Shown in pieces: positions 4,076 through 59,795 of a stretch of 64,000 bases of DNA (within the stretch, counting starts at the first letter, position 1; each line of letters begins with the position of its first letter). The notes under the pieces are model-generated. The model searched no databases, was not told the origin of the DNA, and was given only the letters and a program-made list of their open reading frames with translations. Location of the stretch: the NCBI GenBank assembly GCA_035389185.1, contig DAOORK010000001.1, forward strand, positions 129,006-193,005. Direction: 5' to 3'. The translations under genes were made by a program, and so were the position numbers. The stretch is from Candidatus Woesebacteria bacterium (GTDB lineage Bacteria > Patescibacteriota > Microgenomatia > UBA1400 > MFAQ01).

Positions 4076-4080
4076 CTTTT

Positions 4081-4269
4081 GATCCGGTAGCTCAGCTGGA
4101 TAACAGCTTACTCGTTCTCCTATCAATAATAACTATTATTGATATGTCGGCCTGCGTTTCCTGTTATATCTGGCGCCGATAATTACTCTGTCATTATCGT
4201 CTGGATATAGCGCTCGCTCTATCTGTCTACCTGCTAAATGGTTAGTACTTAGGTTAAAATATAGATGTT
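4081..4269 (+). repeat. pseudo-tRNA-Arg unit 1: exact 22-nt copy of the tRNA-Arg 5' end, then an insert of about 105 nt and a non-tRNA tail
   Basis: 4081-4102 gatccggtagctcagctggata is identical to 4270-4291; the insert carries hairpins tcaataata-ac-tattattga and gataat-N9-attatc and is homologous to the inserts in units 2 and 3. Confidence 0.6.
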
Positions 4270-4343
4270 GATCCGGTAGCTCAGCTGGATAGAGCGACTG
4301 CCTTCTAAGCAGTAGGTCGACGGTCCGAGTCCGTCCCGGGTCA
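4270..4343 (+). tRNA. tRNA-Arg (anticodon TCT)
   Basis: Acceptor GATCCGG/CCGGGTC (one G-T pair), D-arm GCTC-AGCTGGATA-GAGC, anticodon stem ACTGC/GCAGT loop CTTCTAA, T-arm GACGG-TCCGAGT-CCGTC, discriminator A. Confidence 0.8.
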
Positions 4344-4532
4344 CAATAGTAATTGTTCTGCTTTGCAGAATCAGCTGGATAACAGCTTGCTCCCCTTCTC
4401 TTCAATAATATTATTATTGAAGTATCCAGGCTCCGCTTCCTGTTATTTCCGCTCATAACTTCGTTATGATGCTTGGAAATAGCGCGACTGCCTTCTAAGC
4501 AGTAGGTCGACTACGAGCCCTCCCGGGTCACA
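4344..4532 (+). repeat. pseudo-tRNA-Arg unit 2: degenerate 5' half, about 95-nt insert at the D-loop, then an intact anticodon arm, a degenerate T-arm and the acceptor 3' end
   Basis: 4481-4532 agcgcgactgccttctaagcagtaggtcgactacgagccctcccgggtcaca matches the tRNA-Arg 3' portion except in the T-arm; the insert starts ACAGCTTGCTCC and has hairpins ttcaataatattattattgaa and cataac-ttcg-ttatga. Confidence 0.6.
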
Positions 4533-4719
4533 AAACCAGAGATAATAAATATTTACATAATTGTCTTGCAGTAAGAGCTTGCTCCCTACGACGCACATAA
4601 CATGCGTTATGTTGCTGTCTTCAGTCCGCTTCCTCTTATATTCGCTCGTAGTTCACTCTCTTAGTTCGTTTAACTACGATGCTTGAATATAGGTCGACTA
4701 CGAGCCCTCCCGGGTCACA
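4533..4719 (+). repeat. pseudo-tRNA-Arg unit 3: related insert followed by the T-arm/acceptor 3' fragment only
   Basis: 4691-4719 aggtcgactacgagccctcccgggtcaca is identical to the end of unit 2; the insert shares AGCTTGCTCC, CGCTTCCT, GATGCTTGAATAT blocks and a cataac-atgc-gttatg hairpin (covaries with unit 2). Confidence 0.55.
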
Positions 4720-4720
4720 A

Positions 4721-4746
4721 AGAAAAACCCTCCTTGCGGAGGGTTT
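4721..4746. terminator. bidirectional terminator (A-run, ccctcc-ttgc-ggaggg, T-run)
   Basis: Hairpin flanked by A-run and T-run, between the tRNA array and the convergent nadE 3' end. Confidence 0.55.
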
Positions 4747-11052: not shown

Positions 11053-11133
11053 AAAATGGATTGATTGAATAGGTCAAAGTACGTATATATATTACTACAA
11101 GATACCACTTTTGTCAAGTTATAGGGTATTTTG

Positions 11134-11281
11134 TTGCCGAGCTAGGACTCTGTCACCGGTTGTCGCCTAAGGCGACCCCGTCGACCCCGGCGTTTACCGC
11201 ACGTTACGTGCTGCATTCCGCCATTCTCGTCCTAGTATAGTATCAAAAAATATTCTCCCATAAAGGGAGAATATTGTTTTG
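11134..11281 (-). repeat. tRNA-linked structured element (copy at tRNA-Gln) ending in a 17-nt duplicate of the tRNA-Gln 3' end
   Basis: 11134-11150 ttgccgagctaggactc is identical to 11282-11298 (tRNA-Gln 3' end, minus strand); the GC-rich interior contains GCCGGGGTCGAC, the tcgcc-tta-ggcga hairpin and GGTGACA, homologous to the element at 13710-13860. Confidence 0.6.
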
Positions 11282-11353
11282 TTGCCGAGCTAGGACTCGA
11301 ACCTAGGATATCCTCCTCCAAAGGGAGGCGTCCTACCACTAGACGACTCGGCA
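11282..11353 (-). tRNA. tRNA-Gln (anticodon TTG)
   Basis: Read from the reverse complement: U1-A72 acceptor TGCCGAG/CTCGGCA, anticodon stem CCTCC/GGAGG loop CTTTGGA, T-arm CCTAG-GTTCGAGT-CCTAG, discriminator A. Confidence 0.75.
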
Positions 11354-13559: not shown

Positions 13560-13628
13560 AGTTCAACTCCTTTCTTGGGTTGCGAGTATTTTACCATCTA
13601 AGGTAGTTATATGAGAAAATATACCTGT

Positions 13629-13709
13629 TGGGCAGGTGGCGAAATGGTAGACGCGCAGCGTTCAGGACGCTGTGAGGCAACTCATGAGGGTTCGAGTCCC
13701 TCCCCGCCC
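13629..13709 (+). tRNA. tRNA-Leu (anticodon CAG), class II
   Basis: Acceptor GGGCAGG/CCCGCCC (one A-C mismatch), D-loop AAATGGTAGA, anticodon stem CAGCG/CGCTG loop TTCAGGA, long variable arm TGAG-GCAA-CTCA, T-arm GAGGG-TTCGAGT-CCCTC. Confidence 0.7.
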
Positions 13710-13860
13710 ACATAAAAACATCAATATGTACTCTTGCAGTAAATATTGTGTTTTTGATTTTGTGGAGGACTCGAATGGCGCAGGCATGACTGATGCCGAG
13801 CCGGGGTCGACAGAATCGCCAGCAGGCGAGAACTGGTGACCGAGTCCCTCCCCGCCCACA
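13710..13860 (+). repeat. tRNA-linked structured element (copy at tRNA-Leu-CAG) ending in a 20-nt duplicate of the tRNA-Leu 3' end
   Basis: 13841-13860 cgagtccctccccgcccaca is identical to 13692-13711; interior AGGACTCGAATGGCG, hairpin ggcat-gact-gatgcc, GCCGGGGTCGAC, hairpin tcgcc-agca-ggcga, CTGGTGAC. Confidence 0.6.
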
Positions 13861-13899
13861 CGTGATTCGTGCGGTATAATATAGTCTGTTCGTTAAATT

Positions 13900-13983
13900 G
13901 CCGAGATGGCGAAATGGTAGACGCACTACCTTGAGGTGGTAGCGCCCTTTAAAGGCATGGAGGTTCAAGTCCTCTTCTCGGCA
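13900..13983 (+). tRNA. tRNA-Leu (anticodon GAG), class II
   Basis: Acceptor GCCGAGA/TCTCGGC, D-loop AAATGGTAGA, anticodon stem CTACC/GGTAG loop TTGAGGT, long variable arm, T-arm GGAGG-TTCAAGT-CCTCT, discriminator A; TATAAT-like box about 20 nt upstream. Confidence 0.75.
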
Positions 13984-13996
13984 CAAAAAACTGAAT

Positions 13997-45957: not shown

Positions 45958-46140
45958 CTAAGTTCAGTTTGTTCCGAGGCGATCCGCAAGGGTCGCTTCG
46001 TTGTATTGATGTATCCGACTAAAATTTTCCTAAATTGATTGAAAATCGCGTTCGAGTCCCGTAAGGGTTGTTATTGGATTGTGGATAATTCTTCAAAAAA
46101 CGTCTATAAATAATAGTAGAGAGCAATCTTTACTCAACAA

Positions 46141-46311
46141 CTATTTGTGTTTTGTTTTATCCACTAGCACAAATTGTTGCCTTTTACCCTGGTTGTTTGG
46201 CGGTGTTTTATCACCTCGACTGAGAGTGTACTCAGTCGTACCACCCGAAGGTCGGTACTGTCCAGAAACTGGAGCAAGTTTGCCTGTATAGGCAATTACT
46301 TTTTTCTGCAT
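46141..46311 (-). CDS. hypothetical small protein (56 aa)
   Basis: ATG preceded by an AGGAGG RBS, internal to the 81-aa track ORF; Gly/Thr-rich. Confidence 0.4.
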   Translation of the reverse strand: MQKKVIAYTGKLAPVSGQYRPSGGTTEYTLSRGDKTPPNNQGKRQQFVLVDKTKHK

Positions 46312-46454
46312 TTCCTTTTTCCTCCTTTCTCGCCGGGCTACGGCGTGCTGGTTGCACCGCTCCTTCGAGAAATTTAGCTGTACCAATAAAGACGCTCTCT
46401 ACTGCGAATAATCTATCACCAAAAATCTAACTTAGCAACTTTTTACTTAGAGTG

Positions 46455-47780
46455 CTAATTATTGATTAAAATATACCTGTTTTTGAGAACGAACCTTGTG
46501 TTAATAAGTGAGAGAATTTCCAATCTTTCTTCTGAAGTTCCTCCCCTGAGAATATGGATCAGGTAGTTCTTCGCCATTGCTTTGAATTCTAGTTTTCCCG
46601 GAATCATTCCATTTTCCCCATCGAACTTACCCAACATATATTCTTGGTGGAGTACATCGGTTTTTAACCTGTGATATCTTTCGATGTCCTCTTGGATTTT
46701 CCGAGAGATGCCAGCCTGATTGTAAGATATTTTGTCGATATGACCAATTATTTGTTTAACGAGATCATCTTCCTCAACATATGGTTCGTTACATTCGTAA
46801 TCTAAATATCTCCGACAGTGGTAGTAGATATGCTTTTTAAACCCTCCTCCCCTTAATTTTCTCAGTTTCTCTTCTGCGGTTACCGAACTTCCGCAAGATC
46901 CACACTTTATTAATGTTTTGAAAGCAAAGATATTTTTGTTCCATGTCTTTGGTACTGTTTCCAGTTGTTTTTGGACTTTCTCGAATAACTCTTTGGTAAT
47001 AAGTGGTTTGTGTTTGCCCTTGTACCAGATGCCACTTCCAGATGGAAATTCAAACTCACCATAATAGAATGGATTTTTGAGAATTGCGTGAACTTTACTC
47101 GTGGGACACAACACACCTTGTCTGGTTTCAAAACCAATTCTATCTAGCCATCTTTTTACCGACCTACCACTGTGACCTTGGACACCAACTCTTTCAAACA
47201 TTTGTTTTACAAATGGGGCCCTAATTGGATCGAGGATAACCAGCTCATCAGTACGGCCATCTCCCTTTTGGTTGAGATATCCCATCGGAGCCATACTTGG
47301 TTTCCAACCTAGACTACATTTGTTTCTTAATCCCCTTTCGACATTTACTCCCTTGTTATCGTTTTCCAATTTGGCTTGGGAGCAGAGGATCATCAGAAGA
47401 AATTTTTCGTTGGGACTATTGGTGAAGGATTGGCTGTAAGTTTGGATGCGGAGTAGTTTCTTCTGGTCCATGAGGTCCACAAGTGTTCCCAGATCACCCG
47501 CATTACGGCTTAGACGATCAGGTGCCCATGTGAGTATTCCGTTGAACTTTCCGGAGCGAATTCCTTTTATTAATTCCACAAATACAGGTCTTGCTCCAGA
47601 TTCTTTGGCTGAATGACTTTCTATTTTTATTTCTTTTACTTTTATGTTTTCTCTCTTAGCCAATACTTTCATTTCGTCAATTTGAGAATCAATGGACATA
47701 ATTTGTCTTTCGTCACTTTCAGAAGACTTGCGGGCGTAGAGACAGTAACTTATTTCCTGTGTTTTTGTGGATGTATCCAT
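46455..47780 (-). CDS. large serine recombinase (integrase)
   Basis: N-terminal resolvase catalytic domain (YARKSS, SIDSQ Ser), recombinase domain, Cys zinc ribbon (CGSCGS...C), coiled-coil C-terminus; 441 aa. Confidence 0.85.
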   Translation of the reverse strand: MDTSTKTQEISYCLYARKSSESDERQIMSIDSQIDEMKVLAKRENIKVKEIKIESHSAKESGARPVFVELIKGIRSGKFNGILTWAPDRLSRNAGDLGTLVDLMDQKKLLRIQTYSQSFTNSPNEKFLLMILCSQAKLENDNKGVNVERGLRNKCSLGWKPSMAPMGYLNQKGDGRTDELVILDPIRAPFVKQMFERVGVQGHSGRSVKRWLDRIGFETRQGVLCPTSKVHAILKNPFYYGEFEFPSGSGIWYKGKHKPLITKELFEKVQKQLETVPKTWNKNIFAFKTLIKCGSCGSSVTAEEKLRKLRGGGFKKHIYYHCRRYLDYECNEPYVEEDDLVKQIIGHIDKISYNQAGISRKIQEDIERYHRLKTDVLHQEYMLGKFDGENGMIPGKLEFKAMAKNYLIHILRGGTSEERLEILSLINTRFVLKNRYILINN

Positions 47781-47813
47781 TACTTATCAATGTACCGCAA
47801 GTTTTCTGTAAGT

Positions 47814-49244
47814 CTAGTCCAGGTATCTAACTCTTGGCTCTCCTTTGCTTGCCTCAGCTATGAAATAGTAAAAACCGAGAGTGAAAGCATCAACTAGATC
47901 ATCGTGTGGCTCTACCCCAAAATGAATAATCTGTCCGATTAGCTCATCGGCTCCATGGACTGGAAAAAGCACTTTACCGTTTTGAATCCAACTACTGGTA
48001 AGTGAGAGTCGACTTCTTTTGTCATTTCCACCGATTGTTATTCCTTTTACGTTTACGCTCTCGGTTTCCAACATTTGGATTAAACTTTTTTGATAAGCAA
48101 CATCTTCTACTAAAACTAAGGGTGAATATTGGAGAAGGGATTGTCGGAGATCATTAATTATTTTGATTGTTTCCGGCATTCCCATTCTTTTATTTACCAT
48201 TGTGGGCATTACCTTCACTTGGATATCTTTGTGGTAACCATACATCAGGAATATTACGATTGCGGTTTTGTCTGCCCTTTGGTTTTCGGAAATAGCAGGA
48301 TCGACAGATATGACGGCACACCTCAGATTTTTTGTATCGATTGGAAGTGTGGAGTCATATCGAGCAATCCACTCCGGTAAAACGACTTGATCACCATCGG
48401 GGATTATTTTAAGCATGAACTCCCGAAGAAAATCGGAATCACTGGCAGTTTTCTTTCTCAATCTTTCAATTGAACGTTTGTCCGTAAACTTCCCCGGCCA
48501 AAGGATTTTGCTTCCCCTCATCAAGGGATACTGTTTATAGATTCCGTCAATTCTTTTCTTGGATATGGCTTTCTTCATCCTCATCATTAGAGAGTCTTCG
48601 TGGACGAGATTACCGATGAAAACAATTTTAGTGTTTTGATCTCCTGAAGGAATAAGCTCCGAGTTTACAAATTGCCAAAGTTTATCTCTTCCTTCTTTCG
48701 TCTTAGCCGACTGCATATCCTCGATATCATCGCAGATGATGAGATCTGGACGGTATTGGCGATGGCGAATACCTCTCATACTTTGTGAAACGGAAACTAC
48801 GGTAATTCTGGCATTGTATCGATCCAAAACTAAACTCTCACTATTCCACTCTCCCTTTTTGGAAGCGAAACTTCCAAAGTCTGTATAAAGTAGTTTGTTT
48901 AACTCCAATTCCGCTTTTATATTTGATAAAGTTTGCTGAGCCTGTTGTTGGGTTTGGCAGACGATCAAAACATATTTCTTTTGTGGCGCACCTACGATTG
49001 ACCAGATCGGGTATGAGAGTGTCATTATGGTCGATTTGGCTGACCCACGGAAGGCAACAATAGCTAGTGTTTTAGTATCGACATTCTCCGTTAAACGAAA
49101 TATTTCCTGTTGGAACTGAGCGGTTTCGTATTTAACAAAAGAAGAGAAATATGTATGGAAAAACCAATAATGTGAACCAAAGGTTACTGATTGCCTTACC
49201 GCTGGATTACCGATGATATTTTCAAAAAGTTTCTGCTTTTCCAT
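47814..49244 (-). CDS. phage terminase large subunit
   Basis: ATPase Walker A-like AFRGSAKST, Walker B LIICDDIED, C-terminal RNase H-like nuclease Asp residues (VISVDPA, LVEDVAYQ, HDDLVDAF). Confidence 0.75.
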   Translation of the reverse strand: MEKQKLFENIIGNPAVRQSVTFGSHYWFFHTYFSSFVKYETAQFQQEIFRLTENVDTKTLAIVAFRGSAKSTIMTLSYPIWSIVGAPQKKYVLIVCQTQQQAQQTLSNIKAELELNKLLYTDFGSFASKKGEWNSESLVLDRYNARITVVSVSQSMRGIRHRQYRPDLIICDDIEDMQSAKTKEGRDKLWQFVNSELIPSGDQNTKIVFIGNLVHEDSLMMRMKKAISKKRIDGIYKQYPLMRGSKILWPGKFTDKRSIERLRKKTASDSDFLREFMLKIIPDGDQVVLPEWIARYDSTLPIDTKNLRCAVISVDPAISENQRADKTAIVIFLMYGYHKDIQVKVMPTMVNKRMGMPETIKIINDLRQSLLQYSPLVLVEDVAYQKSLIQMLETESVNVKGITIGGNDKRSRLSLTSSWIQNGKVLFPVHGADELIGQIIHFGVEPHDDLVDAFTLGFYYFIAEASKGEPRVRYLD

Positions 49245-49656
49245 TTTCTTTGATTGGTTTTTCTTTTATGACTCCTGAAAGCAGAAGTGCTTCTCTTACA
49301 ATTGCCTCTTCATCAGGTGTGAGATCATCACGCAGGTGATTCTGGTCGGAAGAGATTTCCAACTTGGGAATGTATGACTGGTGATGATTTTTGAGCCAGA
49401 AGATGATGGCAGTCATATTCTTGTCTCTTATCGATGAAAGCAACTGCGACTCGGCCATGTCATTAATCATCTCAATGCCTTCTTTGAGAGCTTTATCGCT
49501 TTCCTCTTTGAACTTTTTATCCTCCGACCGCCAACGATAGTAGGTGGCACGGCTAACCCCTGATTTTTCGCAAACGACTTGGACAATTGGTGTCTTTTGC
49601 AACAACTCGATGAGTTTGCTTTTATTTTCTTCTTGACGTTTTTCGATGGTGTTCAT
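49222..49656 (-). CDS. putative terminase small subunit / HTH DNA-binding protein
   Basis: HTH VSRATYYRWR; lies immediately upstream of and overlapping the terminase large subunit. Confidence 0.5.
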   Translation of the reverse strand: MNTIEKRQEENKSKLIELLQKTPIVQVVCEKSGVSRATYYRWRSEDKKFKEESDKALKEGIEMINDMAESQLLSSIRDKNMTAIIFWLKNHHQSYIPKLEISSDQNHLRDDLTPDEEAIVREALLLSGVIKEKPIKENGKAETF

Positions 49657-50978
49657 GTGATTTGTTTAGCTTTTAATCCAGTGAGTCTCTCCCATCTTTT
49701 TTTGATAACCTCAGCGTAGACTGGAGACTTCTCCATGAGATAGCAACGACGTTTCATTTTGGTAGCCGCAATCAAGGTTGACCCGCTGCCACCAAATGGT
49801 TCGACAATCAGGTTACCTCGCTTGGTAAGAACTTTGATGTATGGAATTAATATCTCGGTTGGTTTGGTGCCGAAGATCACACCTTGGCCGGAATGTTTTT
49901 CATCTGAGGCATTAAACTCAATGAAATCTGTTGGTTGTGTTTTCTTTCCTTTCTCATACCCTTCCCATTGAGGTTTGCCAGATATGGCGTAGAGTGCGGT
50001 TTCATATTCTTGCTGGAGTCCGTCTTGTTCTTCCTCGTTGTTGTACTGAATATCCACTTCTTTTGACGCTCCAACCATGGCAATGTCATGTTTGCTGAAG
50101 AACTTATATTTAGCAGAGAAACCTTGATGTCGATTGGGTAAATGCCAAATTATCATATTTTTTACTTTCCAATGTTTTTCCATTTCCCCCCAAATGGTTC
50201 GTAGGTTCTTCCAGTTTTCGTAAACAATGATGGAGAAATGTTCCTTTTGAATATTGGCGATGCTGTTCATCCATTTTTCAGTAAAGTCTAACGGAAGACT
50301 TTCGGTTTCCAAATATCTTCGATCTCTTTTAGCTCCGAATCCTGTTACCGCTTTTCCGTGGCGTTTAGCTTTTAGATAGTCGAGAATGTATGGAGGATCG
50401 GTAAAACACATATCTGCTTTCTCCCCAGCCATCAACTTGAGCCATTCTTCATCGTTGGTGGAATCTCCACACATCAATCTGCTTCCGTCGAGGTCATAAA
50501 TATCACCTTTCTTTATATTTATTTTGGTGATATCCATCTTCAATAGTTCCTTCTGGAGATCAAACTGTTCCGGTGTGTCTTCAATCTCAAAGATTTGATC
50601 TAACTCTTCACTGGAGAAACCAACACTATCCAAAAAAGCAGAATCAAAATCGGCTAACAAACCCCAATCCCATTCACCTGTGTTTTTGTTTAGTCTGAGA
50701 TTTAACTCTTTTTCTTTCTCGATGTCGGGAATATTTACATAGACCACAGGAATTGTTTCGAAGCCCATTTCTTTGGCGACTTCTAACCTGAAATGACCAC
50801 CGATGACAATGTTCTTCCTTTCTGGAGCTTCGTTGACGATGATTGGATCGACCAATCCAAATTTGGTAATACTTTCTTTCAACTGGTCAGCTGATTGTTT
50901 ATCGTGCTTCCTGGGGTTGTATGCCGCAGGATTAAGTTCCTTTATGAAAACTTGGGTTATTTGTATTTGTTTACTCAT
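49653..50978 (-). CDS. ParB-like nuclease domain fused to a DNA methyltransferase (beta-class N4/N6)
   Basis: N-terminal ParB/Srx block (GGHFRLEVAKEMG), motif IV DPPY placed before motif I FGGSGST, so beta-class permutation. Confidence 0.85.
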   Translation of the reverse strand: MSKQIQITQVFIKELNPAAYNPRKHDKQSADQLKESITKFGLVDPIIVNEAPERKNIVIGGHFRLEVAKEMGFETIPVVYVNIPDIEKEKELNLRLNKNTGEWDWGLLADFDSAFLDSVGFSSEELDQIFEIEDTPEQFDLQKELLKMDITKINIKKGDIYDLDGSRLMCGDSTNDEEWLKLMAGEKADMCFTDPPYILDYLKAKRHGKAVTGFGAKRDRRYLETESLPLDFTEKWMNSIANIQKEHFSIIVYENWKNLRTIWGEMEKHWKVKNMIIWHLPNRHQGFSAKYKFFSKHDIAMVGASKEVDIQYNNEEEQDGLQQEYETALYAISGKPQWEGYEKGKKTQPTDFIEFNASDEKHSGQGVIFGTKPTEILIPYIKVLTKRGNLIVEPFGGSGSTLIAATKMKRRCYLMEKSPVYAEVIKKRWERLTGLKAKQIT

Positions 50979-51000
50979 GTTTTTTGAGTAATTGATAATA

Positions 51001-51062
51001 AAAAATGCCTACCTCACAAAAACCTGCTTCAACGCGAAGCGATAAGTTTCTGTGAGGTAGGC
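51001..51062 (-). terminator. large-loop hairpin, probable terminator of the minus-strand operon
   Basis: Perfect 12-bp inverted repeat gcctacctcaca / tgtgaggtaggc around a 32-nt loop, with an A5 run (T-run on the minus strand). Confidence 0.4.
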
Positions 51063-51150
51063 ACGACCGAGGCGAGGCCTCTTCGATAGCTTTGGAGCCA
51101 TCTCCTATCAGGTATTCCTGAAATGAGTGATTCCTACACCACTAATTTAA

Positions 51151-51486
51151 TTATACTGATTTTTTCTGTATTTTTTTCAGGCGCTCTTTTACGTCTTCTC
51201 CAAGAAGAAAGGGTATGCCATTTGGCATAATTATCCGGATGGTCATTCCTTGCTTATTGGCTTTTTCTATTGCTTGAGTAATTTCTGGACCAAAAGGAAT
51301 TGTGAACGTCATTTTCCCTGTCGATTCATCGAGCTTAACATTATCTCTAGTCATAAATGCACGTCCCTGTTGTCCAGTAGATATGGATTTGGAGATAGCT
51401 CTGCCAAATGAAACAGGTTTCCTTACCTCTTGGGTGTGTAGAGAAATATCGGTAAATTGGATATCAAAATATTTTTCATCGGTCAT
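51151..51486 (-). CDS. hypothetical protein
   Basis: 111-aa ORF, last gene of the nuclease-receiver operon. Confidence 0.45.
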   Translation of the reverse strand: MTDEKYFDIQFTDISLHTQEVRKPVSFGRAISKSISTGQQGRAFMTRDNVKLDESTGKMTFTIPFGPEITQAIEKANKQGMTIRIIMPNGIPFLLGEDVKERLKKIQKKSV

Positions 51487-51498
51487 AACTTAATTATA

Positions 51499-51876
51499 TT
51501 AATTTTGACCGTACTTTTTCCCGATTTGGTCTTTGAGTTCTGCCGCGAACTTTTCCAAATCTTGATACTCCTTGTTTATCACAACTTTTACGCCTATTTT
51601 TAGAAGTTCCTCGTTGTATGGTGGGACAGAAGAAATTCCAATTATTTTATCTACTCCAAATTTTTCAAAATCTAATGCATGGAAAGATCCGCCCATGGCA
51701 CAATCACGGTCAAGAAGAATTATGTCGAATTTTAGTTCACTAGGGTTAAGTATCTTTTCGACTTGCTCATAAGTGGAAAAAACTACTGGAGCAAAATCTA
51801 TCTTTGTTTCGAATAATACTCTAAAAATTATCGAGAGCGTCTCCAAATCATCTTCGAGGATAAGCATTGACTTCAT
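51499..51876 (-). CDS. response-regulator receiver-like (CheY-like) domain protein, stand-alone
   Basis: MLILEDD ... ILLDRD pattern (phospho-acceptor Asp position) with alternating beta/alpha periodicity; 125 aa. Confidence 0.4.
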   Translation of the reverse strand: MKSMLILEDDLETLSIIFRVLFETKIDFAPVVFSTYEQVEKILNPSELKFDIILLDRDCAMGGSFHALDFEKFGVDKIIGISSVPPYNEELLKIGVKVVINKEYQDLEKFAAELKDQIGKKYGQN

Positions 51877-53369
51877 TGTCCTTGTTTATCTAAATAGTCT
51901 TTGATAACCATGGTAGCTACACAGTCGTCTTCGTTATACAGAAGAATTCTGTCCATATCGGCCTTGTCTTTGGTTTCAAGATAGTGGTTAAACCATTCAA
52001 TAGACATGGCGCCGGAGGGTGTCTTGTCTCGCCAGCTAAAGCCTAGATACTGAGCAATTTCTTTTAGAGAGTAGCTCATCAAGGGCCAATCGGTATGTTT
52101 GGAAACTACAGAATATAGATCTATTGCTTTTTCTTCACTAAAGAACCAAGCAAGTTCTTCCTCAGTAACCACATCCGGATACTTTTCTCTCATGCGGCGA
52201 TAGGTTGTCTTCTCGTGGTGGGAATAATAGTAAGTAGTAAAGTCGTCTTTGGGTAGTGATCGAATATATTGCCAAAAATTACTCCAGGCTTCTCTTTCTG
52301 ATTCGTCGGTTTTGTCTAATGCAGTAAAGTCTATAAACCTCTCCCCTTTTGGAGAGCGCTCGTATACACCATGAAGATAGACAAAGGCTTGGGTGGGATC
52401 GTCTTCAATATCAAAATATAATTCGTAGCTTGTTTTGGGAAAGTTCATTTTTTCGTAAATGACGGGACTTTTTGTAACTTCCATGATTTTTGATCTTTGA
52501 ACAAACTTTGTGAGTTTTGCCTCTCCCAAACCAAATAAATACTTTTTGTCTTTTTTCTTTTTGGCCAATAGTGTGTCGATGTCCAGGTCAATCAAATCTA
52601 TGTAGCTTTCAATGTCCAAATCTCTTTCTAGGATATCTCTGTTGGCCCTACCGAGACAGAAGATCATACTTGGGTCATGACTCTCTTTTATCCATTTTTT
52701 GCAGCTTGCGTACCATGGGCAAAGTTTGCATTTGCCGGAATATGCTGGTTTGTTTTTTATTTCGTTATTTAAGAGCTTCCCTGCCATTACTTTTGTTTCT
52801 TGGTAAAAGTCCCAGTAAGTTTGAGGTGTTTTTGTGCCAATAGGTTTATCCAAGTCGTATGTAGTTCTCTCGGAGTTAATATCGATAATGGCACCAGAAT
52901 GTTTTTTAGCAAAACCGAGATTGATAAGCACTTCGCAGTAGAGAGCGAGTTGAACCGCATAATGTATTTTGTATTTTCCCTCATTATCATTTTCCTCATC
53001 TACTCCCTCAACTCCCATACCGCTTTTGATGTCGACTGGTAGGTAGGTACCGTCTGGCTGTATTTCTAAGAGGTCCGGAATGCCAAAGAGCTCGCTGTGG
53101 CGAATAGCTCCTTGGTAAATGAGTGGCATTCCTGCATTCATGGCTTCTAGAGTGGCTTTTTCTCTTTCTTTCTCCCCTACTTCTTTGAGATCCAGAATCT
53201 TTCCCAGCTTGCCCACTATATTTTCTTCGTGACTGACTCCTTTTTCCCAAAGCATTTCTACAAAGGGATTTGTATCTGGATTCTTTTCGGCCTTTGGGCC
53301 ATACACATCACGCCAAATACGATGTTCGCACTGGAGGTAGTTATATAGTTTAGATGGTGTGATTTTCAT
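51873..53369 (-). CDS. RecB-family nuclease, TM0106-like (Cas4-like PD-(D/E)xK with Fe-S cysteines, plus a C-terminal RNase H-like domain)
   Basis: N-terminal Cys (YLQCEH), IPDLLEI...VDIK, QLALYCEV (QxxxY), CKLCPWYASC; C-terminal FDIEDD ... YYSHHEKT ... YNEDDC; ATGA overlap with the receiver gene. Confidence 0.55.
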   Translation of the reverse strand: MKITPSKLYNYLQCEHRIWRDVYGPKAEKNPDTNPFVEMLWEKGVSHEENIVGKLGKILDLKEVGEKEREKATLEAMNAGMPLIYQGAIRHSELFGIPDLLEIQPDGTYLPVDIKSGMGVEGVDEENDNEGKYKIHYAVQLALYCEVLINLGFAKKHSGAIIDINSERTTYDLDKPIGTKTPQTYWDFYQETKVMAGKLLNNEIKNKPAYSGKCKLCPWYASCKKWIKESHDPSMIFCLGRANRDILERDLDIESYIDLIDLDIDTLLAKKKKDKKYLFGLGEAKLTKFVQRSKIMEVTKSPVIYEKMNFPKTSYELYFDIEDDPTQAFVYLHGVYERSPKGERFIDFTALDKTDESEREAWSNFWQYIRSLPKDDFTTYYYSHHEKTTYRRMREKYPDVVTEEELAWFFSEEKAIDLYSVVSKHTDWPLMSYSLKEIAQYLGFSWRDKTPSGAMSIEWFNHYLETKDKADMDRILLYNEDDCVATMVIKDYLDKQGQ

Positions 53370-53462
53370 TTAGACAAGGCGACTCCTGTGTTTTATATGC
53401 ACTCTTCGGGTGGTGGCTAAATTATATGCCAGTTATTCATCAATAGAGTTACAATAGAAACT

Positions 53463-56400
53463 ATGACTTTCAATAAAATATTGGATCGTTTTAGGTCTGA
53501 ATCATTTTCTGAGCGAGATAAGGGATTTAAGTTTGAAAGGCTTATTCAAGCATATTTATACACTGACCCAAAATATACCCACCTACAAAAGATATGGCTT
53601 TGGGGTGAATTTCCCTTTCGCTCCTCATTTGGAGGCCAAGATGTAGGAATTGATTTGGTTGCTAAAACATTTGAAGGTGAATATTGGGCAATACAATGCA
53701 AATGTTATCAAGAAGATAATCGCATTAATAAAGAGGAGGTCGATACTTTCTTAGCCACATCGAGTCGCAGTTTTAAGGATGAACAATTAGCAGAGATCAA
53801 ATTTAGTCACTGTCTTTGGGTTTCTACAACAAATAATTGGTCCTCAAATGCGAACGAATCGTTGCAAAATCAAAATCCTCCGGTAACCAGAATAAATCTA
53901 TCTGACTTACAGGAAGCATCTGTTGACTGGTCTAAAATAAGTGAAGGAATGTATGGTGAGAAAGCACGAACTCCTAAGAAGCAACTTAAATATCACCAAA
54001 AAGAGGCCCTTGATAAAGCCATAAACTATTTTAAGAATGACAACCGTGGAAAATTAATCATGGCTTGCGGCACAGGCAAGACTTTTACCAGTCTAAAGAT
54101 TGCAGAGGAACTGACAAATCACACTGGTACTATTTTGTTCTTAGTCCCCTCGATCGCCTTACTCGGACAATCTCTTCGAGAGTGGACAAGTGACGCCGCA
54201 GAAGAAATAAATCCTATTGCAATCTGTTCTGATTCGGAAATTACAAAAGACAAAAAAAAGAATGAAGACACCGACACCTACAGTGTAGTTGACTTAGCTA
54301 TCCCCGCCTCTACAAACATGAGAGACATTCTCAAACAATTTGAGTATTTTGAAATGGCAAAAAAGAAAGGCCTGACCGTTGTCTTCTCCACATATCAGTC
54401 AATTGATGTAATTTCCCAGACCCAGAAGAGACTTGAAAGTATCGGGAGTAAGTACCAAAAGTTTGATCTTATTGTATGCGATGAAGCACACCGTACTACT
54501 GGAGTAACGATTTCCGGAGAGGATGAATCATCATTTGTCAAAGTACACGACAATGCTTTCATTAATGCAGATAAGCGTATATACATGACTGCCACACCTA
54601 GACTATATGGTGAAGAGTCAAAGAGAAAAGCTGAAGAAACATCTGCTGTGTTGTGCTCAATGGATGATGAGGCACTTTATGGTAAAGAAATATATCGCAT
54701 TGGCTTTGGTGAGGCAGTTGAACGAGATTTACTGTCGGACTACAAGGTCTTAATCCTTACTCTTTCCGAAAATGATGTAACTCCAGAGGTCCAAAAAATA
54801 CTCCAGAATCCTGAACACGAAATCGGTGTTGATGATGCTTCAAAGTTGATTGGATGTATAAATGCAATGTCAAAACAAATTATTAGTGATAAGGGCACTG
54901 TGAACACAAATGACCCTGATCCTATGCGACGTGCCGTGGCATTTACTTCGAGCATAAAGATTTCCAAAAAAATTACTGATTCGTTTAATGAAATTGGTGA
55001 AACTTACGCAAAATCAGTTCCGGAACTAAAACAACAAACACTAGTAAACCTTAACTCAAAACACATAGATGGATCTATGTCTGCGACTGACCGCAATGAG
55101 CTTATGTCTTGGCTAAAGGCAGAGCCTAACGACTCCCAAGAGGCTCGGGTTCTCACAAATGTTAGATGTTTAAGTGAAGGTGTTGATGTACCAACTCTCG
55201 ATGCTGTTATGTTCCTTTCGGCAAAGAACTCCCAAATTGATGTAGTTCAATCAGTGGGTCGAGTAATGCGAAAAAGTCCAGGTAAACAATATGGTTATAT
55301 TATTATTCCTATTGTTATCCCAACAGATGTTAAACCTGAAGATGCTCTGAAAGATAATGATAGATATAAGGTTGTCTGGACAGTATTAAACGCACTACGT
55401 GCACATGATGACCGATTTAACGCGATTGTAAATAAGATCGATCTAAACAAAAATCGTCCAGTACAAATTATTATCGGAAGGCCAGATCCAGATGGTGATG
55501 GAGATCCTTTTAATGATTCTGACGAATCAAAAAAGGCACTCAAGGGTTCTCAGCTAGCATTACAATTTGATCAACTCCAAAATGCTATTTATGCGAAAAT
55601 GGTGCAAAAAGTTGGTGATCGTCAATATTGGGAAAACTGGGCAAAAAGTGTTGCAGACATAGCTGAAAGGCAGATTGTAAGAATCACGAAGATAGTTGAC
55701 GAAGATGACTCTGCGCACATGGGCTTCCGTGAATTTGTTCGAGGTCTACGAAAAAATATAAATCCATCGATAACTGAACAGCAGGCTATTGAAATGTTGT
55801 CGCAACACATAATCACAAAACCAGTTTTTGAGGCATTGTTTGAAGGGTATTCTTTTGTTTCAAACAATGCAGTGTCCATATCTATGCAAAAAGCACTTGA
55901 TGCTATAGAAACAAAGGCTATCGAAGATGTTGATGCAGAGCTTCTTCAGGGGTTTTATAAATCAGTTCGAAAACGAGCAGAGGGAATTGATAATTCAGAA
56001 GGAAAACAAAGAATAATAGTTGAGCTTTACGACAAATTTTTTAAGACTGCATTTCCAAAACTGGTAGAGCAGTTGGGCATAGTATATACACCTGTGGAGG
56101 TGGTTGATTTCATAATCCACTCCATAAATGATGTGTTACAAAATGAATTTGGTCGTAGCTTGAGTGATGAGAATGTAAATATTCTCGACCCATTCACTGG
56201 GACAGGAACATTTATTACTCGCTTATTACAGACTGGTGTAATAAAGCATCAAGATCTTGAAAGAAAATACAAGGGAGAAATTTTTGCTAATGAAATAGTA
56301 CTACTTGCCTACTACATAGCAGCAGTAAATATTGAAAATGCATATCATGATCTGCTTAAAAAAGATGTCTATGAGAGTTTTGAAGGTATTGTTCTTACTG

Positions 56401-58325
56401 ACACCTTCCAGCTGAGTGAAGATGGCGACAATGAAAAATTATTTTGTGATGCGTTAGCAGAAAACTCAGAGAGACTTGAACGTCAGAAAAATACACCTCT
56501 TAAAGTGATCATGGGAAACCCACCATATTCGGTTGGCCAAACTTCAGCAAATGACGCGTCACAAAATCAAAGCTATCCAAAACTAGAAAACCGAATCGGA
56601 CAGACATATGTATCTCAAATCACCGATAACACCCTCAAGCAATCACTATATGATGCATATATTAAGGCGTTCCGCTGGGCCACTGATCGCCTTGATAAAG
56701 ATGGTGGAATTATCTGTTTTGTTTCTAATGGAGCCTGGCTTGACGGAAAAGCTACCTCTGGATTTAGAAAAACAATTGAAAATGAGTTTACTAGTGTTTA
56801 TGTCTTTAATCTTCGAGGTAACCAACGAACAAATGGAGAAGAATCTCGTCGCGAGGGGGGGAAAATATTCGGAAGTGGCTCTCGTACACCGATTTCTATC
56901 ACACTACTAGTCAAAAATCCAAACAAACATAACGATAAAGCTGAGATTTTGTATCACGACATTGGAGACTATCTAAGTCGGGAAGAAAAACTGAAAATTA
57001 TATCTGATTTTAAGACAGTATCAAATCAAAAATTAGTCTGGAAAACGCTTAATCCAAACAATGAGGGAGATTGGATAAACAAACGTCATAGCATTTTTGA
57101 TACTTATGTAGAGCTTGGTTCAAAAGCTAAAAATAAGAACTCGTGCTTTGATCTGTATTCTGCTGGAGTTATTACGCATCGCGATGCATGGGTTTACGAC
57201 TTCAGCGAAATTAAGCTGGAAGATAAACTAACCAGAATGATTTCCTTTTATAACAGTGAGGCAAAAAAGCTGCAAGTGATGAGGCAAAAAAATCATAGAG
57301 TATCTGTCGAGAAAAGTGTTAATAAAGATTCTAAACTTATCAAATGGGATCGTAGGCTGTATGAACATGCTGATAAATCTGTAGTTCACACCTTTAATAG
57401 TGCTGATATTTATACAACGCTATATCGCCCATTCTCGAAACAACATTATTATTTCAATAAAAATTTAAGCTGGAGCAGATACTTACAACCGAAGCTATTT
57501 CCCTACCCCACGAGCAGTAATCTTGTGATCTGCACCACAGGACCAGGAGCAAACAAGGATTTTTCTGCATTAATGAGCAATGTTGTCACTGACTTCCATA
57601 CGTTAATGAATAATCAATCTTTTCCGCTATATTACTATGAAAAGAATGAACAAAATATTCCTTCTCTTTTCGATTTAGAAAAGAATAACGAATATAACAA
57701 GAGAGATAGTATAAGTGATTACGTTTTGCGTAAAGCACAAACACAATATTCTGATAATGAAATCAGCAAAGAAGATATCTTTTATTACATATATGGACTG
57801 CTTCATAGCATGGACTATCGAATTGAGTTTGCAAATGATTTAAAAAAAATGTCACCTAAAATTCCCCTTGTTGAAACAATAAGTGATTTCAAGAAATTTA
57901 GTAAAGCAGGTAGAAAATTGGGAGAACTACATGTAAACTACGAAAAAGTTCCCCCATATGAAGGTGTTAGGGTGAGCGGGACACAGCACAATAACTATCT
58001 TGTTGAGAAACTCAAATTCATTAAGAAGGGACAACGTGACACAATAATATTTAACAATCAAATAAAGATTGAGAATATCCCCGAAATTGCTTATAAGTAT
58101 GTTGTAAATGGGAAGAGTGCAATTGAATGGATTGTCGAGAAATATCAGATTAAAACGGATAAGGAAAGCGGAATAGTTAATGATCCAAATGATTGGGCGA
58201 AGGAAGTTGGAAATCCCAGATATATTCTTGATTTGCTTCTGAGTGTAATTAATTTAAGTGTTCAAACAGTGGACATTGTAAATAGCTTACCCAAGCTAAG
58301 TTTTGACACTGGGACAAAAGAATAA
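53463..58325 (+). CDS. Type ISP-like single-polypeptide restriction-modification enzyme (Mrr nuclease, SF2 helicase-like ATPase, gamma-class N6-adenine methyltransferase, target-recognition domain)
   Basis: N-terminus GQDVGIDLVA...IQCKCY (Mrr PD-QxK); LIMACGTGKTFT (motif I), VCDEAHRTTG (DEAH), QSVGRVMR (motif VI); DPFTGTGTF (methyltransferase motif I) then NPPY; 1620 aa. Confidence 0.7.
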   Translation: MTFNKILDRFRSESFSERDKGFKFERLIQAYLYTDPKYTHLQKIWLWGEFPFRSSFGGQDVGIDLVAKTFEGEYWAIQCKCYQEDNRINKEEVDTFLATSSRSFKDEQLAEIKFSHCLWVSTTNNWSSNANESLQNQNPPVTRINLSDLQEASVDWSKISEGMYGEKARTPKKQLKYHQKEALDKAINYFKNDNRGKLIMACGTGKTFTSLKIAEELTNHTGTILFLVPSIALLGQSLREWTSDAAEEINPIAICSDSEITKDKKKNEDTDTYSVVDLAIPASTNMRDILKQFEYFEMAKKKGLTVVFSTYQSIDVISQTQKRLESIGSKYQKFDLIVCDEAHRTTGVTISGEDESSFVKVHDNAFINADKRIYMTATPRLYGEESKRKAEETSAVLCSMDDEALYGKEIYRIGFGEAVERDLLSDYKVLILTLSENDVTPEVQKILQNPEHEIGVDDASKLIGCINAMSKQIISDKGTVNTNDPDPMRRAVAFTSSIKISKKITDSFNEIGETYAKSVPELKQQTLVNLNSKHIDGSMSATDRNELMSWLKAEPNDSQEARVLTNVRCLSEGVDVPTLDAVMFLSAKNSQIDVVQSVGRVMRKSPGKQYGYIIIPIVIPTDVKPEDALKDNDRYKVVWTVLNALRAHDDRFNAIVNKIDLNKNRPVQIIIGRPDPDGDGDPFNDSDESKKALKGSQLALQFDQLQNAIYAKMVQKVGDRQYWENWAKSVADIAERQIVRITKIVDEDDSAHMGFREFVRGLRKNINPSITEQQAIEMLSQHIITKPVFEALFEGYSFVSNNAVSISMQKALDAIETKAIEDVDAELLQGFYKSVRKRAEGIDNSEGKQRIIVELYDKFFKTAFPKLVEQLGIVYTPVEVVDFIIHSINDVLQNEFGRSLSDENVNILDPFTGTGTFITRLLQTGVIKHQDLERKYKGEIFANEIVLLAYYIAAVNIENAYHDLLKKDVYESFEGIVLTDTFQLSEDGDNEKLFCDALAENSERLERQKNTPLKVIMGNPPYSVGQTSANDASQNQSYPKLENRIGQTYVSQITDNTLKQSLYDAYIKAFRWATDRLDKDGGIICFVSNGAWLDGKATSGFRKTIENEFTSVYVFNLRGNQRTNGEESRREGGKIFGSGSRTPISITLLVKNPNKHNDKAEILYHDIGDYLSREEKLKIISDFKTVSNQKLVWKTLNPNNEGDWINKRHSIFDTYVELGSKAKNKNSCFDLYSAGVITHRDAWVYDFSEIKLEDKLTRMISFYNSEAKKLQVMRQKNHRVSVEKSVNKDSKLIKWDRRLYEHADKSVVHTFNSADIYTTLYRPFSKQHYYFNKNLSWSRYLQPKLFPYPTSSNLVICTTGPGANKDFSALMSNVVTDFHTLMNNQSFPLYYYEKNEQNIPSLFDLEKNNEYNKRDSISDYVLRKAQTQYSDNEISKEDIFYYIYGLLHSMDYRIEFANDLKKMSPKIPLVETISDFKKFSKAGRKLGELHVNYEKVPPYEGVRVSGTQHNNYLVEKLKFIKKGQRDTIIFNNQIKIENIPEIAYKYVVNGKSAIEWIVEKYQIKTDKESGIVNDPNDWAKEVGNPRYILDLLLSVINLSVQTVDIVNSLPKLSFDTGTKE

Positions 58326-58326
58326 T

Positions 58327-59757
58327 ATGGAATGGCTAGTCCTCATGGGAGGAGTTCTATTAGTCGGATATTTTCTCGGTAAATCAGATAAGTCTGGTAG
58401 AGAGGTTAGCACTCCTGATCCAGTCAAATCTGTACAATCAGGTCAATTTCCTAAGAAACTAAATGTTAAGCATGAGGAAATTGACAGCATTAATCTTAGT
58501 GATGAGCAATCTGAAATATTTAACTTACTAGAAACGACAAATAATGCTTATTATGTAACTGGAAAAGCAGGCACTGGTAAATCCATACTATTAAAATATT
58601 TTGTTACCCATACTGGAAAAAGAGTTGTTGTAGTTGCTCCTACAGGAGTGGCTGCTCTAAATATTGGTGGCCAGACAATACATTCACTTTTTAAGATGCC
58701 ATTTGATATCGATTTTAATGATATCAAGGTTGATTACAGAACCAGAGAGCTATTGAGAAATATCGATACGGTAGTTATTGATGAAGTATCAATGGTTCGT
58801 GCTGATTTGATGGAGGCAATGAATATTAAACTGCAAATATCCAGAGGAAATACTCTGCCGTTTGGTGATGTCCAAATGATAATGTTTGGTGATTTGTATC
58901 AATTACCTCCAGTCGTAAGTGATGGCGAATTACAAAGATACTTAAATCATAAGTTTGGTGGACACTATTTCTTTAACGCACCGTCAATAAACAAAGCTAA
59001 TCTGCAAACCTATGAACTTAAAAAAGTATTTCGGCAGAAAGATGCTGAATTTATAAGAATATTGGATGCCGTAAGGAGAGGTGTAATTAAAGAAATTGAC
59101 TTAGAGGCACTTAACGAACGTTCTCGTGCCGATAAACCTACTGATGGATATGTAACTCTGGCAGGAACAAATGAAACTGTGTCGTATATCAACCATAAAA
59201 ACTTAGATAAACTCCCTGGAGAAGAAAAGGTATATGAGGCTGAAATATGGGGAGATATCACAGAGAATTCGTTTCCAACTGAAAAGAAGTTGAGACTTAA
59301 AATTGGTGCTCAAATTATGATGCTAAAAAATGACACTGAGAAACCGAGGCGATGGGTAAATGGAACACTTGGCGTAATTACAAAATTAAGTCAAGACGTG
59401 GTTCGCGTAAACATTGATGGAGTTGAGCACACCATCACACCCGCAAACTGGGACAAAATTCAATACGAATACGACCCAGATAATCGAGAGCTAAACAAAA
59501 AAGTTGTAAGTTCTTTTAAGCAATTACCATTACGATTGGCTTGGGCTATAACAATCCATAAATCACAAGGGCAAACATATAAAACAATTGCAATTGATTT
59601 AACAGGTGGTGCGTTTGCTCACGGACAGACATATGTTGCACTCAGTAGATGTGTCTCGCTAGAAGGAATATATCTTAATGCTCCAATCAAGAAGGAGGAC
59701 ATCATTGTTGACCCTGACATTATTGAATTTATGAGCAAGGCGGTGGTACTTAATTAA
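58327..59757 (+). CDS. PIF1/RecD-like SF1B helicase
   Basis: VTGKAGTGKS Walker A, VVIDEVSM Walker B, C-terminal LAWAITIHKSQGQTY...VALSRC (PIF1 motifs V and VI); ATG 1 nt after the upstream stop. Confidence 0.7.
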   Translation: MEWLVLMGGVLLVGYFLGKSDKSGREVSTPDPVKSVQSGQFPKKLNVKHEEIDSINLSDEQSEIFNLLETTNNAYYVTGKAGTGKSILLKYFVTHTGKRVVVVAPTGVAALNIGGQTIHSLFKMPFDIDFNDIKVDYRTRELLRNIDTVVIDEVSMVRADLMEAMNIKLQISRGNTLPFGDVQMIMFGDLYQLPPVVSDGELQRYLNHKFGGHYFFNAPSINKANLQTYELKKVFRQKDAEFIRILDAVRRGVIKEIDLEALNERSRADKPTDGYVTLAGTNETVSYINHKNLDKLPGEEKVYEAEIWGDITENSFPTEKKLRLKIGAQIMMLKNDTEKPRRWVNGTLGVITKLSQDVVRVNIDGVEHTITPANWDKIQYEYDPDNRELNKKVVSSFKQLPLRLAWAITIHKSQGQTYKTIAIDLTGGAFAHGQTYVALSRCVSLEGIYLNAPIKKEDIIVDPDIIEFMSKAVVLN

Positions 59758-59795
59758 TAATAATTGGAATTGTTAAGACATTGGCGGTGCCGATG

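Follow-up and report, generated by a model that had tools for sequence, protein, structure and literature searches.

Within a 64,000-nt stretch of the chromosome of a Candidatus Woesebacteria bacterium (contig DAOORK010000001.1, positions 129,006 to 193,005; hereafter the window), three of the 11 tRNA genes detected with ARAGORN have behind them, on their own strand, a block whose end is an exact copy of the 3' part of that very tRNA, starting at C56 in the T loop. The blocks belong to a family of structured units of the Candidate Phyla Radiation (CPR, or Patescibacteria), and we interpret them, at roughly even confidence, as miniature, gene-less, site-specific and non-autonomous integrative elements that target the tRNA T loop. 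The observations that this interpretation has to accommodate are the anatomy of the units, the extent of the family and its restriction to CPR bacteria, the match of a closing stem (P1) to each individual tRNA, the covariation of three helices, and several signs of turnover.

The window is ordinary bacterial chromosome of the small-genome kind, about 40% GC, with genes for RsgA, BipA, NadE, UvrABC, LexA, RuvABC and glycolysis. Its tRNA-linked blocks were described in a sequence-only reading, whose tRNA positions hold: tRNA-Leu(CAG) at 13630-13711, tRNA-Gly(TCC) at 265-338, and tRNA-Gln(TTG) at 11281-11353 on the minus strand. The 20-nt tRNA copy that ends the Leu block (13693-13712 and 13841-13860) and the 19-nt copy behind tRNA-Gly (318-336 and 466-484) were likewise found with the stated lengths, while the Gln copy lies on the minus strand as stated but spans 22 nt rather than 17 (11277-11298 and 11129-11150). 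All three direct repeats are exact and all three are spaced 148 nt start to start; in a shuffle control, the number of chance matches expected in the window for such a 19-mer is zero. The unit interiors are indeed GC-rich in an AT-rich genome (55-65% against ~40%). The folds of the Leu, Gln and Gly copies beat those of shuffled sequences both as RNA (z = -3.8, -5.2 and -2.75, respectively) and as DNA (z = -4.0, -4.6 and -3.45).

Across the family, the units always lie on the tRNA strand, where the order of parts is the tRNA, a spacer with a hairpin, an anti-T-arm segment, a conserved core and the displaced repeat. The spacer always contains its hairpin, which in many copies, the Gln unit among them, is a clear intrinsic terminator. 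The anti-T-arm segment (about 10 nt) is reverse-complementary to tRNA positions 54 to ~63, which take in the T loop together with some of the T-stem 3' strand. It complements the 3' half of the T arm and is not a copy of the 5' half (TTCGAGT is answered by ACTCGAA, TTCGATT by AATCGAA), and it reaches positions 54-55, which are absent from the repeat; the tRNA-Gly loop TCCGACT has its own matching segment, GTCGGA. The core consists of TGGCG, a hairpin (P2), GCCGGGGTCGACGG, a second hairpin (P3) and AACCGGTGAC, and its motif GAATGGCG starts 24-70 nt past the tRNA end, mostly at 53-66 nt. The repeat begins at C56 in nearly every copy and has a modal length of 21 nt, up to the CCA end, with a right end that varies among 0, +5, +8 and +27 nt past the end of the tRNA. 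Since the anti-T-arm segment pairs with the distal repeat as P1, and the last base pair of P3 uses C56, the three helices form a three-way junction that straddles the insertion junction.

The Leu unit illustrates this arrangement. The last 20 nt of its tRNA (13693-13712) form the proximal repeat, which under an integration model would have been supplied by the insert, and in the spacer (13712-13763) a T-rich tail comes after a hairpin that is imperfect and rich in A/T (AAAAACATCAATAT...ATATTGTGTTTTT). Next, GGAGGACTCGAA (13764-13775) makes up the P1 left strand and is the reverse complement of T-loop and T-stem positions 54-64 of tRNA-Leu(CAG). P2 (13777-13802) has the base GGC/GCC and the inner stem GGCAT/ATGCC; P3 (13805-13841) is built from GGTC..GACC, CAG..CTG and the inner hairpin TCGCC-AGCA-GGCGA, its last pair using C56 of the distal repeat. 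This repeat (13841-13860), the displaced piece of tRNA-Leu, runs from C56 to the 3' end, and its first 10-11 nt serve as the right strand of P1. On the minus strand, the Gln unit combines a terminator-like spacer hairpin and T run (11249-11275) with a three-way-junction core (11140-11237) comprising the P1 left strand CTAGGAC, a long P2 with a UAA loop, and the P3 hairpin GTCGCC-TTA-GGCGAC.

The Gly unit departs most from this pattern, and in a three-way alignment, where it is aberrant, the blocks share only 66% identity. Its spacer hairpin, AAAAATCTCTCC-CTTGT-GGGGAGATTTTT (342-371), is terminator-like, and its core and distal repeat (382-484) are decayed. All the hairpins quoted in the sequence-only reading are present; AGGACnnGAATGGCG, however, which it gave as common to the three blocks, occurs in the Leu and Gln copies only, and the 'GGACTGAAATAGGG' read in the Gly copy is a false register. 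The true counterpart there is AGGGATGTCGGA at 382-393, the left strand of P1 and the reverse complement of the unusual TCCGAC T loop of tRNA-Gly. GCCGGGGTCGAC, present exactly twice in the window, is shortened to GCCCGAC in the Gly copy, whose P2 hairpin belongs to the subtype of L127 and L128 (L-numbers are labels of fetched loci). The tRNA-Gly(TCC) gene at 265-338 is itself odd, its T loop TCCGACT having C at position 55, where U or pseudouridine is near-universal.

The closing inverted repeats proposed from the three window copies are real and are tailored to the tRNA at which each unit sits: P1 is complementary to its own tRNA at 5.2 of 7 variable positions, against 3.7 of 7 in mismatched pairings, a value of 5.2 being reached in none of 5000 permutations. 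Covariation was analyzed on 50 distinct sequences with column shuffles (n = 500), in a set where three motifs are invariant only through their use as search patterns. Standard pairs occupy 95.8% of pair cells, compared with 80.3% in column shuffles and 25-40% when the partner strand is slid. Two-sided changes are found in 19 of 22 pairs (11.0 in shuffles) and in 169 cells (38 expected), and none of the 500 shuffles reaches the observed covariation values. In divergent copies the base of P2 changes from GGC/GCC to AGC/GCT, GAC/GTC, GCC/GGC or GTC/GAC, and the base of P3 from GGTC..GACC to GCCT..AGGC. These statistics confirm that the structure is under selection, as had been argued from the window alone.

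The size of the family was established by pattern and model searches. A scan of a genome collection with GAATGGCG-N(10-40)-GCCGGGGTCGAC returned mostly chance matches, in GC-rich genomes; every AT-rich match has the anatomy seen in the window, and these come from the complete WWE3 genome CP006914 (two matches), another WWE3 genome, several Saccharibacteria, and metagenome-assembled genomes designated 'Patescibacteria group'. Two of the pattern-matched contigs, of 39-41% GC, carry a Pseudomonadales bin label. A stricter three-motif scan of metagenomes yielded 46 loci, about 42 of them real. A covariance model was then built from 34 non-identical copies, 32 from other genomes, with the Leu and Gln copies of the window included and the Gly copy left out. 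The model scores Leu at 95.2 bits (E 1.6e-27), Gln at 69.7 bits (1.6e-19) and Gly at 18.1 bits (0.0026), and finds no other match below E = 1 in the 64-kb window; on the strength of this match we regard the Gly block as a true, if decayed, member of the family. A covariance-model search for further copies, which the sequence-only reading had called for, recovers 67 copies in 54 sequences, including divergent ones missed by the text pattern. In the collections scanned, real copies are confined to chromosomes of CPR bacteria, namely WWE3, Saccharibacteria and other Patescibacteria. About 20 tRNA species carry units: Ser and Arg and Leu (four anticodons each), Lys (two), Asp, His, Tyr, Gln and Gly, with one repeat of Glu type. 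The units contain no open reading frame and measure 122-158 nt as repeat spacing, with a mode of 148-151 nt; 'exactly 148 nt' was therefore dropped as a rule of length, 148 being no more than the family mode.

The family appears to be undescribed so far, judged by Rfam 15, three mobile-element collections and a literature search. At gathering scores the Rfam 15 search gave only tRNAs and at E <= 10 only noise with E >= 0.4, so a known RNA family was dropped as a candidate. The strict three-motif pattern has no match in IMG/VR; a looser scan gave 40 loci, among which the covariance model found no credible match, its two marginal hits (18.7 and 19.3 bits, E 0.006-0.009) lying in GC-rich sequence. 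Searches with blastn against PLSDB (plasmids) and INPHARED (phages) gave no match, and 7 kb of flanking sequence matches phages through tRNAs only. A phage or plasmid origin was abandoned after these three collections had yielded no credible match. A full-text literature search returned no description of the element; the tRNA introns reported from Patescibacteria (PMC13011429) are group I introns in anticodon loops, a different thing from these units.

Mobility of the units is suggested by tandem arrays, by a change of order relative to another element, by module shuffling, and by empty and filled versions of the same site. Two copies of equal score stand in tandem in L152, a truncated second copy is found in L047, and L164, L141 and L154 have a third, divergent unit, every unit with its own terminator. 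The studied element precedes or follows an unrelated element, 'family C', at tRNA-Ser(TGA): family C comes first in L051 and L131 and second in L071, and the studied element, spacer included, is identical between L051 and L071 over the 103 nt compared. Related genomes carry different core variants at the same tRNA (L128 vs L155, L047 vs L163), and P2 and P3 modules are combined differently among copies. Empty and filled sites, in comparisons between distant genomes only, are provided by tRNA-Lys and tRNA-Glu, which lie 3 nt apart in the window and have a unit between them in L104, and by tRNA-Leu(TAA), which has no unit in L082 and a unit in L164. Of the three explanations offered by the sequence-only reading, that of miniature non-autonomous elements aimed at T loops best fits the roughly 20 tRNAs, the start at C56, the arrays, the order swap, the shuffling and the empty site.

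Family C is itself of interest as a ~180-bp element (L051 5253-5440, also L131, its start in L071) built on the same plan as the studied units: it has a terminator hairpin of its own, a segment complementary to the T loop, three hairpins and, beginning at A59, a displaced piece of the tRNA (DNA fold z = -3.8). A hybrid core is seen in L122 at 36-103 (also in L095 and L156): on its left, the spacer end and P1 left strand are those of the tRNA-Arg(TCT) unit, and on its right, P3 and the repeat are those of the tRNA-Leu(TAA) unit; this composition implies that recombination between two neighbouring cores deleted the intervening tRNA.

Units also decay, as is plain from the window Gly copy, L124 and L135. 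In L104, L047, L138, L135, L148 and L137, however, the distal repeat has shrunk to 8-15 nt with P1-P3 intact, which argues for selection on the core rather than on the relic. A comparison of the window with L165, at the same tRNA-Leu(CAG)/tRNA-Leu(GAG) pair, is instructive: the spacers cannot be aligned, yet 48 nt of the core differ by no more than a 1-nt indel, located in the loop of P2; changes in P3 are compensated, and the tRNAs have diverged, each with a repeat that matches it. The last point can be explained if units cycle in and out, both repeats alternating as the working end of the tRNA, or if the tail is functionally constrained; either is possible. Locus L004 (6560-6700) presents a separate case, in which all that stands behind a tRNA-type promoter (GGTAAAATAT) in place of tRNA-Lys is a hairpin remnant of 18 nt (GTCCCACAAGGGACCCCA), with a spacer, a core and a full 21-nt copy of the tRNA-Lys 3' end after it. 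Here the tRNA gene appears to have been lost and its trailing unit kept; the idea that L004 holds a 'large', cargo-bearing version was dropped, as the unit simply lies beside a degenerate tRNA remnant whose promoter has been kept.

In the model that we favour, an element of ~125-130 bp plus a ~20-nt repeat would integrate into the T loop of a tRNA gene, with sequence identity starting at C56. The insert would supply a new 3' end from C56, so that the tRNA stays intact, and would also bring the hairpin (often an intrinsic terminator), the complement of positions 54-63 and the conserved core. The original 3' fragment of the tRNA would be shifted downstream, where it could pair with the complementary segment as P1 and thereby close the P1/P2/P3 junction. 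Movement would take place through a small circle and by a site-specific recombination whose two partners are the tRNA T loop and the boundary of core and repeat; the predicted circle junction is ...CCGGTGAC joined to CGAAT..tRNA 3' end..spacer.., and the enzyme would be supplied in trans. The three-way junction may serve as the recognition module, acting as a folded single-stranded nucleic acid, DNA being likelier than RNA. Folded P1 would in that case offer a duplex copy of the right half-site of the target, much as integron attC and CTX attP(+) do.

The choice between DNA and RNA bears on a second explanation, in which the unit is a structured small RNA retained by the host, or a cis-acting RNA in the tRNA trailer, and the insertion-like anatomy only records how the gene arose. 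The 3' end of such an RNA would be an authentic tRNA T-arm/acceptor strand, and two partners would be open to its 5' strand, this tail and the T arm of the adjacent tRNA. The strong covariation would be expected of it, and the tRNA-sense strand does fold better than its complement in 48 of 50 copies, by 5.6 kcal/mol on average, with a conserved G-T/G-U pair kept in P3. The persistence of the core where the distal repeat has decayed, the sharing of a 48-nt core (1-nt indel) by distant genomes with unalignable spacers, and the identity of the repeat to the local tRNA although the tRNAs differ among genomes all speak for it, as does the extension of the complementary segment to positions 54-55, which are found only in the intact tRNA. 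In addition, many copies have -10-like boxes behind the T run and a short way 5' of P1, a part of them with an extended TG. These boxes are so close to P1, however, that a transcript would begin inside or past its left strand, a terminator hairpin stands between tRNA and core in many copies, and no consistent terminator follows the unit, most copies having none.

The composition of the stems is a further difficulty for an RNA. In an unbiased hairpin count, the variable stems comprise 483 Watson-Crick, 6 G-T and 3 A-C pairs (492 in total), and stem changes are overwhelmingly double, seldom single-sided. Selected RNAs usually tolerate many G-U pairs, and a wobble content of about 1% would be unusual for one. 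Because the stems are almost purely Watson-Crick, a role at the DNA level, as a folded single strand, seems somewhat likelier than one as RNA, a leaning that is not decisive. A strand call from the wobble counts was dropped, the fitted alignment giving 23 G-T against 13 A-C and the unbiased count, 6 against 3, being too small, although the rarity of such pairs is telling in its own right. The plain decay of the window Gly copy, L124 and L135, the presence of units at only some tRNAs, in a subset that changes between genomes, and a copy number, tandem arrays and variant turnover that resemble those of selfish DNA also fit a small RNA poorly. The tRNA-trailing small RNA suggested by the sequence-only reading is thus weakened by the terminator before the core, the want of a consistent one after it and the near-absence of wobble pairs, and we consider an RNA of either kind unlikely, if a serious contender. 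The effect of a unit on transcription can be glimpsed in L104, where an A/T-rich sequence resembling a promoter, just ahead of tRNA-Glu, has taken the place of the displaced fragment's distal part, suggesting that the spacer terminator cuts the tRNA-Lys/tRNA-Glu operon.

A third possibility is that the blocks are inert scars, the attR-proximal arms left at tRNA genes by internal deletion of larger islands with a tyrosine or serine recombinase. They have the geometry of genomic islands inserted into tRNA genes, some copies decay, and serine recombinases are encoded near tRNAs in 5 of the 55 stretches (53 fetched loci plus two parts of the window) whose open reading frames were clustered; islands with such genes adjoin tRNA genes in the window (46455-47780), L104, L004, L206 and L211. 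The recombinase genes do not lie at unit borders, and a link between the units and large serine recombinases was dropped on that account. A '2-nt stagger' between top- and bottom-strand identity, considered as the cut of a serine recombinase, failed as well, the offset in family C being 5 nt with the same anti-T-loop segment. The attR remnants proposed by the sequence-only reading retain their support in the geometry of tRNA integration, but none of the copies in the loci examined borders a large island, and the one Rep gene found next to a core belongs to a rearranged accretion.

That gene, in L121, encodes a rolling-circle Rep (PF23343) and ends 25 nt before the core, an adjacency unique to this locus. 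Rep genes of this kind are found elsewhere in a four-gene module (L206 6840-10479, L211 450-4161, L207 264-3636, and L212) encoding a regulator-like protein of ~300-350 amino acids, a protein of 61-63 amino acids, Rep (~309 amino acids) and a large serine recombinase (~510-525 amino acids). The module sits at tRNA-Ser genes, with the 3' end of the recombinase gene overlapping the tRNA on the opposite strand, and probably represents a small integrative plasmid of rolling-circle type from CPR bacteria; a viral scan for relatives of Rep gave no match. The L121 Rep is truncated at its C terminus (274 vs ~309 amino acids), the modules of L206, L211 and L212 have no core, and in L207 module and core stand in a pile-up of displaced tRNA-Ser fragments, the core ~2.6 kb from Rep with other genes between. 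The core was accordingly dismissed as a part of the Rep/serine-recombinase module, its presence in L121 being put down to accretion. L121 ((-) 270-392) and L207 (4995-5093) also share a displaced tRNA-Ser fragment, behind the core, that is split between T stem and acceptor strand by a 47-57-nt insert, ..GCGAAGC / GCCGAAGGC hairpin .. CTTAC, that is related in both loci.

These loci lend the scar explanation something, in that the core lies within accretions of integrated elements at tRNA-Ser. Against it stand the intact Rep-recombinase modules without a core and the truncation of the one Rep beside a core, and also the existence of more than 50 copies of near-equal length (mode 148-151 nt) at ~20 tRNAs, which never contain gene remnants. 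Compensatory covariation and a core conserved beside a decayed repeat point to selection that would not be expected of a scar, and the core is absent from every viral, phage or plasmid sequence searched; we therefore hold inert scars to be improbable. The same loci raise the idea that rolling-circle elements left the unit at tRNA integration sites, the unit being their single-strand replication origin or the hairpin recognised by their Rep (HUH nuclease). The position of the core after the Rep gene in L121, a structure seemingly conserved in single-stranded DNA, with very few wobble pairs, and the recurrence of a TTGATA-like motif in some spacers would agree with such an origin. Rep adjacency in L121 alone, next to a truncated Rep whose homologues in L206, L211 and L212 come without a core, the distance and intervening genes in L207, and the lack of significance of the TTGATA-like motif in an A/T-rich tail make it very improbable indeed.

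The strongest candidate for a recurrent neighbouring protein, the top cluster of open reading frames with members at 13 loci, was discarded as the antisense translation of the core and the tRNAs. The antisense strand of the core is open in the window (13591-13986 and 13662-13859, both (-)) and in many other loci, and its reading as a recurrent pseudo-protein (..GHRF..VDPGSAPS.LRHS..) clusters over 13 loci like a real family. A low-GC island (45959-64000) beside tRNA-Lys(TTT)/tRNA-Glu(TTC) begins with the large serine recombinase gene at 46455-47780 (-) and encodes a helix-turn-helix transposase-like protein, a ParB-methylase, a PD-(D/E)XK/RNase H-like protein, a 1620-amino-acid Type ISP restriction enzyme and a PIF1 helicase. 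It contains a partial copy of the tRNA-Lys T arm at 46046-46062, and the window has no copy of the tRNA-Glu 3' end that would mark its far border.

Several observations weigh against integrative elements of the kind we favour. No recurrent recombinase or transposase was found near the copies, the clusters of open reading frames consisting of the antisense pseudo-frame of the core and of syntenic housekeeping genes, and no free or plasmid- or phage-borne copy was found in IMG/VR, PLSDB or INPHARED. A double-stranded circle of 148 bp would be very strained, and the variable right end of the repeat (0, +5, +8, +27) leaves the geometry of the cut undefined. Retargeting would need a change in both the carried tRNA end and the complementary segment, by a route that the model leaves unexplained. 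Many copies lie at the same tRNA in distant genomes, which would also fit a vertically inherited functional element. Finally, the strand bias in folding and the conserved G-T/G-U pair of P3 are equally compatible with top-strand RNA and with single-stranded DNA.

The known kind to which the favoured elements would belong is that of tRNA-targeting integrative elements, represented by genomic islands at the T-loop sublocation of tRNA genes (Islander-type; PMC4383910) and by tycheposons, stacked in arrays at tRNA genes (bioRxiv 10.1101/2020.12.28.424599). As in these, the tRNA is split and regenerated by the insert, a displaced 3' fragment lies at the far end, and identity runs from within the T loop to the 3' end or slightly past it; as in tycheposon arrays, successive integrations stack with partial tRNAs between them. 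The units differ from such islands in being ~130 bp rather than kilobases long, without integrase or cargo, in having a conserved three-way junction and an inverted copy of the target T loop and stem, and in lacking a T-stem-like core site directly 5' of the displaced fragment.

Cis-mobilizable elements (CIMEs) are att-flanked, lack recombination genes, are kilobases in size and derive from a known cognate integrative and conjugative element or integrative and mobilizable element (IME). Like them, the units lack autonomy, have direct repeats of att type at their borders and would presumably be mobilised in trans; in contrast to them, the units have no known cognate autonomous element and amount to little but an att-like module (for a review of IMEs, see PMC5704250). 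The comparison with folded sites goes further in structure: structure is kept in the units while stem sequence varies, the stem rebuilds a duplex resembling the target site, mismatches lie beside the presumed crossover, and small DNA units are inserted at one site in arrays. Integron attC and CTX phage attP(+) are recombination sites of this type, which act as folded single strands. The units depart from them in forming a three-way junction and not a simple bulged hairpin, in targeting the tRNA T loop, and in that a single-stranded form is, for them, a proposal. No GTTRRRY/R-L box consensus or dif-like site is visible in the aligned copies, and no integrase lies nearby in the 55 stretches.

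Bacterial miniature inverted-repeat transposable elements and REP-like elements, such as Correia and RUP (reviewed in PMC3184786), are also small, non-coding, multi-copy and foldable, with inverted termini. In the units, by contrast, each copy has inverted termini of its own that fit the tRNA at which it sits, the flanking repeat is ~21 nt and variable with no target-site duplication of fixed length, and target specificity is absolute (the tRNA T loop, in one orientation). No parent insertion sequence or other parent element was found for the units in the genome and metagenome scans or in IMG/VR.

These comparisons lead to a bolder version of the integrative-element model, in which the unit is a self-contained mobile entity of ~150 nt and the nucleic acid itself recognises the target. 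The folded strand, DNA or an RNA copy, would build a duplex or guide from the anti-T-loop segment and the copy of the tRNA 3' end, and a recombinase encoded by the host or by an unlinked element would insert the unit into whichever tRNA matches. Choice by base pairing would liken it to integron attC, CTX sites and bridge-RNA-guided IS110, here directed to tRNA T loops and without a gene of its own. We put this version forward tentatively and think it rather doubtful, and it is with similar reserve that we suggest that targeting encoded in nucleic acid may make the units something new.

One more set of structured elements in the window, 'family B' (4077-4725), is unrelated to the units. Three tandem repeats of ~187-189 bp surround tRNA-Arg(TCT) (4270-4344), with a 22-nt copy of the tRNA 5' end/D arm at 4081-4102, a partial tRNA-Arg pseudogene that has a 97% copy of the anticodon arm at 4479-4511 and an aberrant T arm, and a 32-nt exact repeat (4503-4534 and 4690-4721). 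The family B motif has no match in the 205 fetched loci.

If active, the tRNA-linked units would be among the smallest site-specific integrative units known, an attachment site stripped of all else and spread over a superphylum of tiny genomes. Their tailored closing stem suggests that the choice of target is encoded in nucleic acid and is perhaps reprogrammable. For their hosts, the units equip tRNA genes with terminators and new 3' ends, can oblige tRNAs next to them to gain new promoters, as seems to have happened in L104, and give rise to deletions between neighbouring tRNAs (L122). Read in antisense, the core creates a recurrent false 'protein family' in CPR annotations, where gene callers are likely to record it as a hypothetical protein. 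Should the units instead act as RNA, they would constitute a new class of structured RNA, found throughout the CPR and physically coupled to tRNAs.

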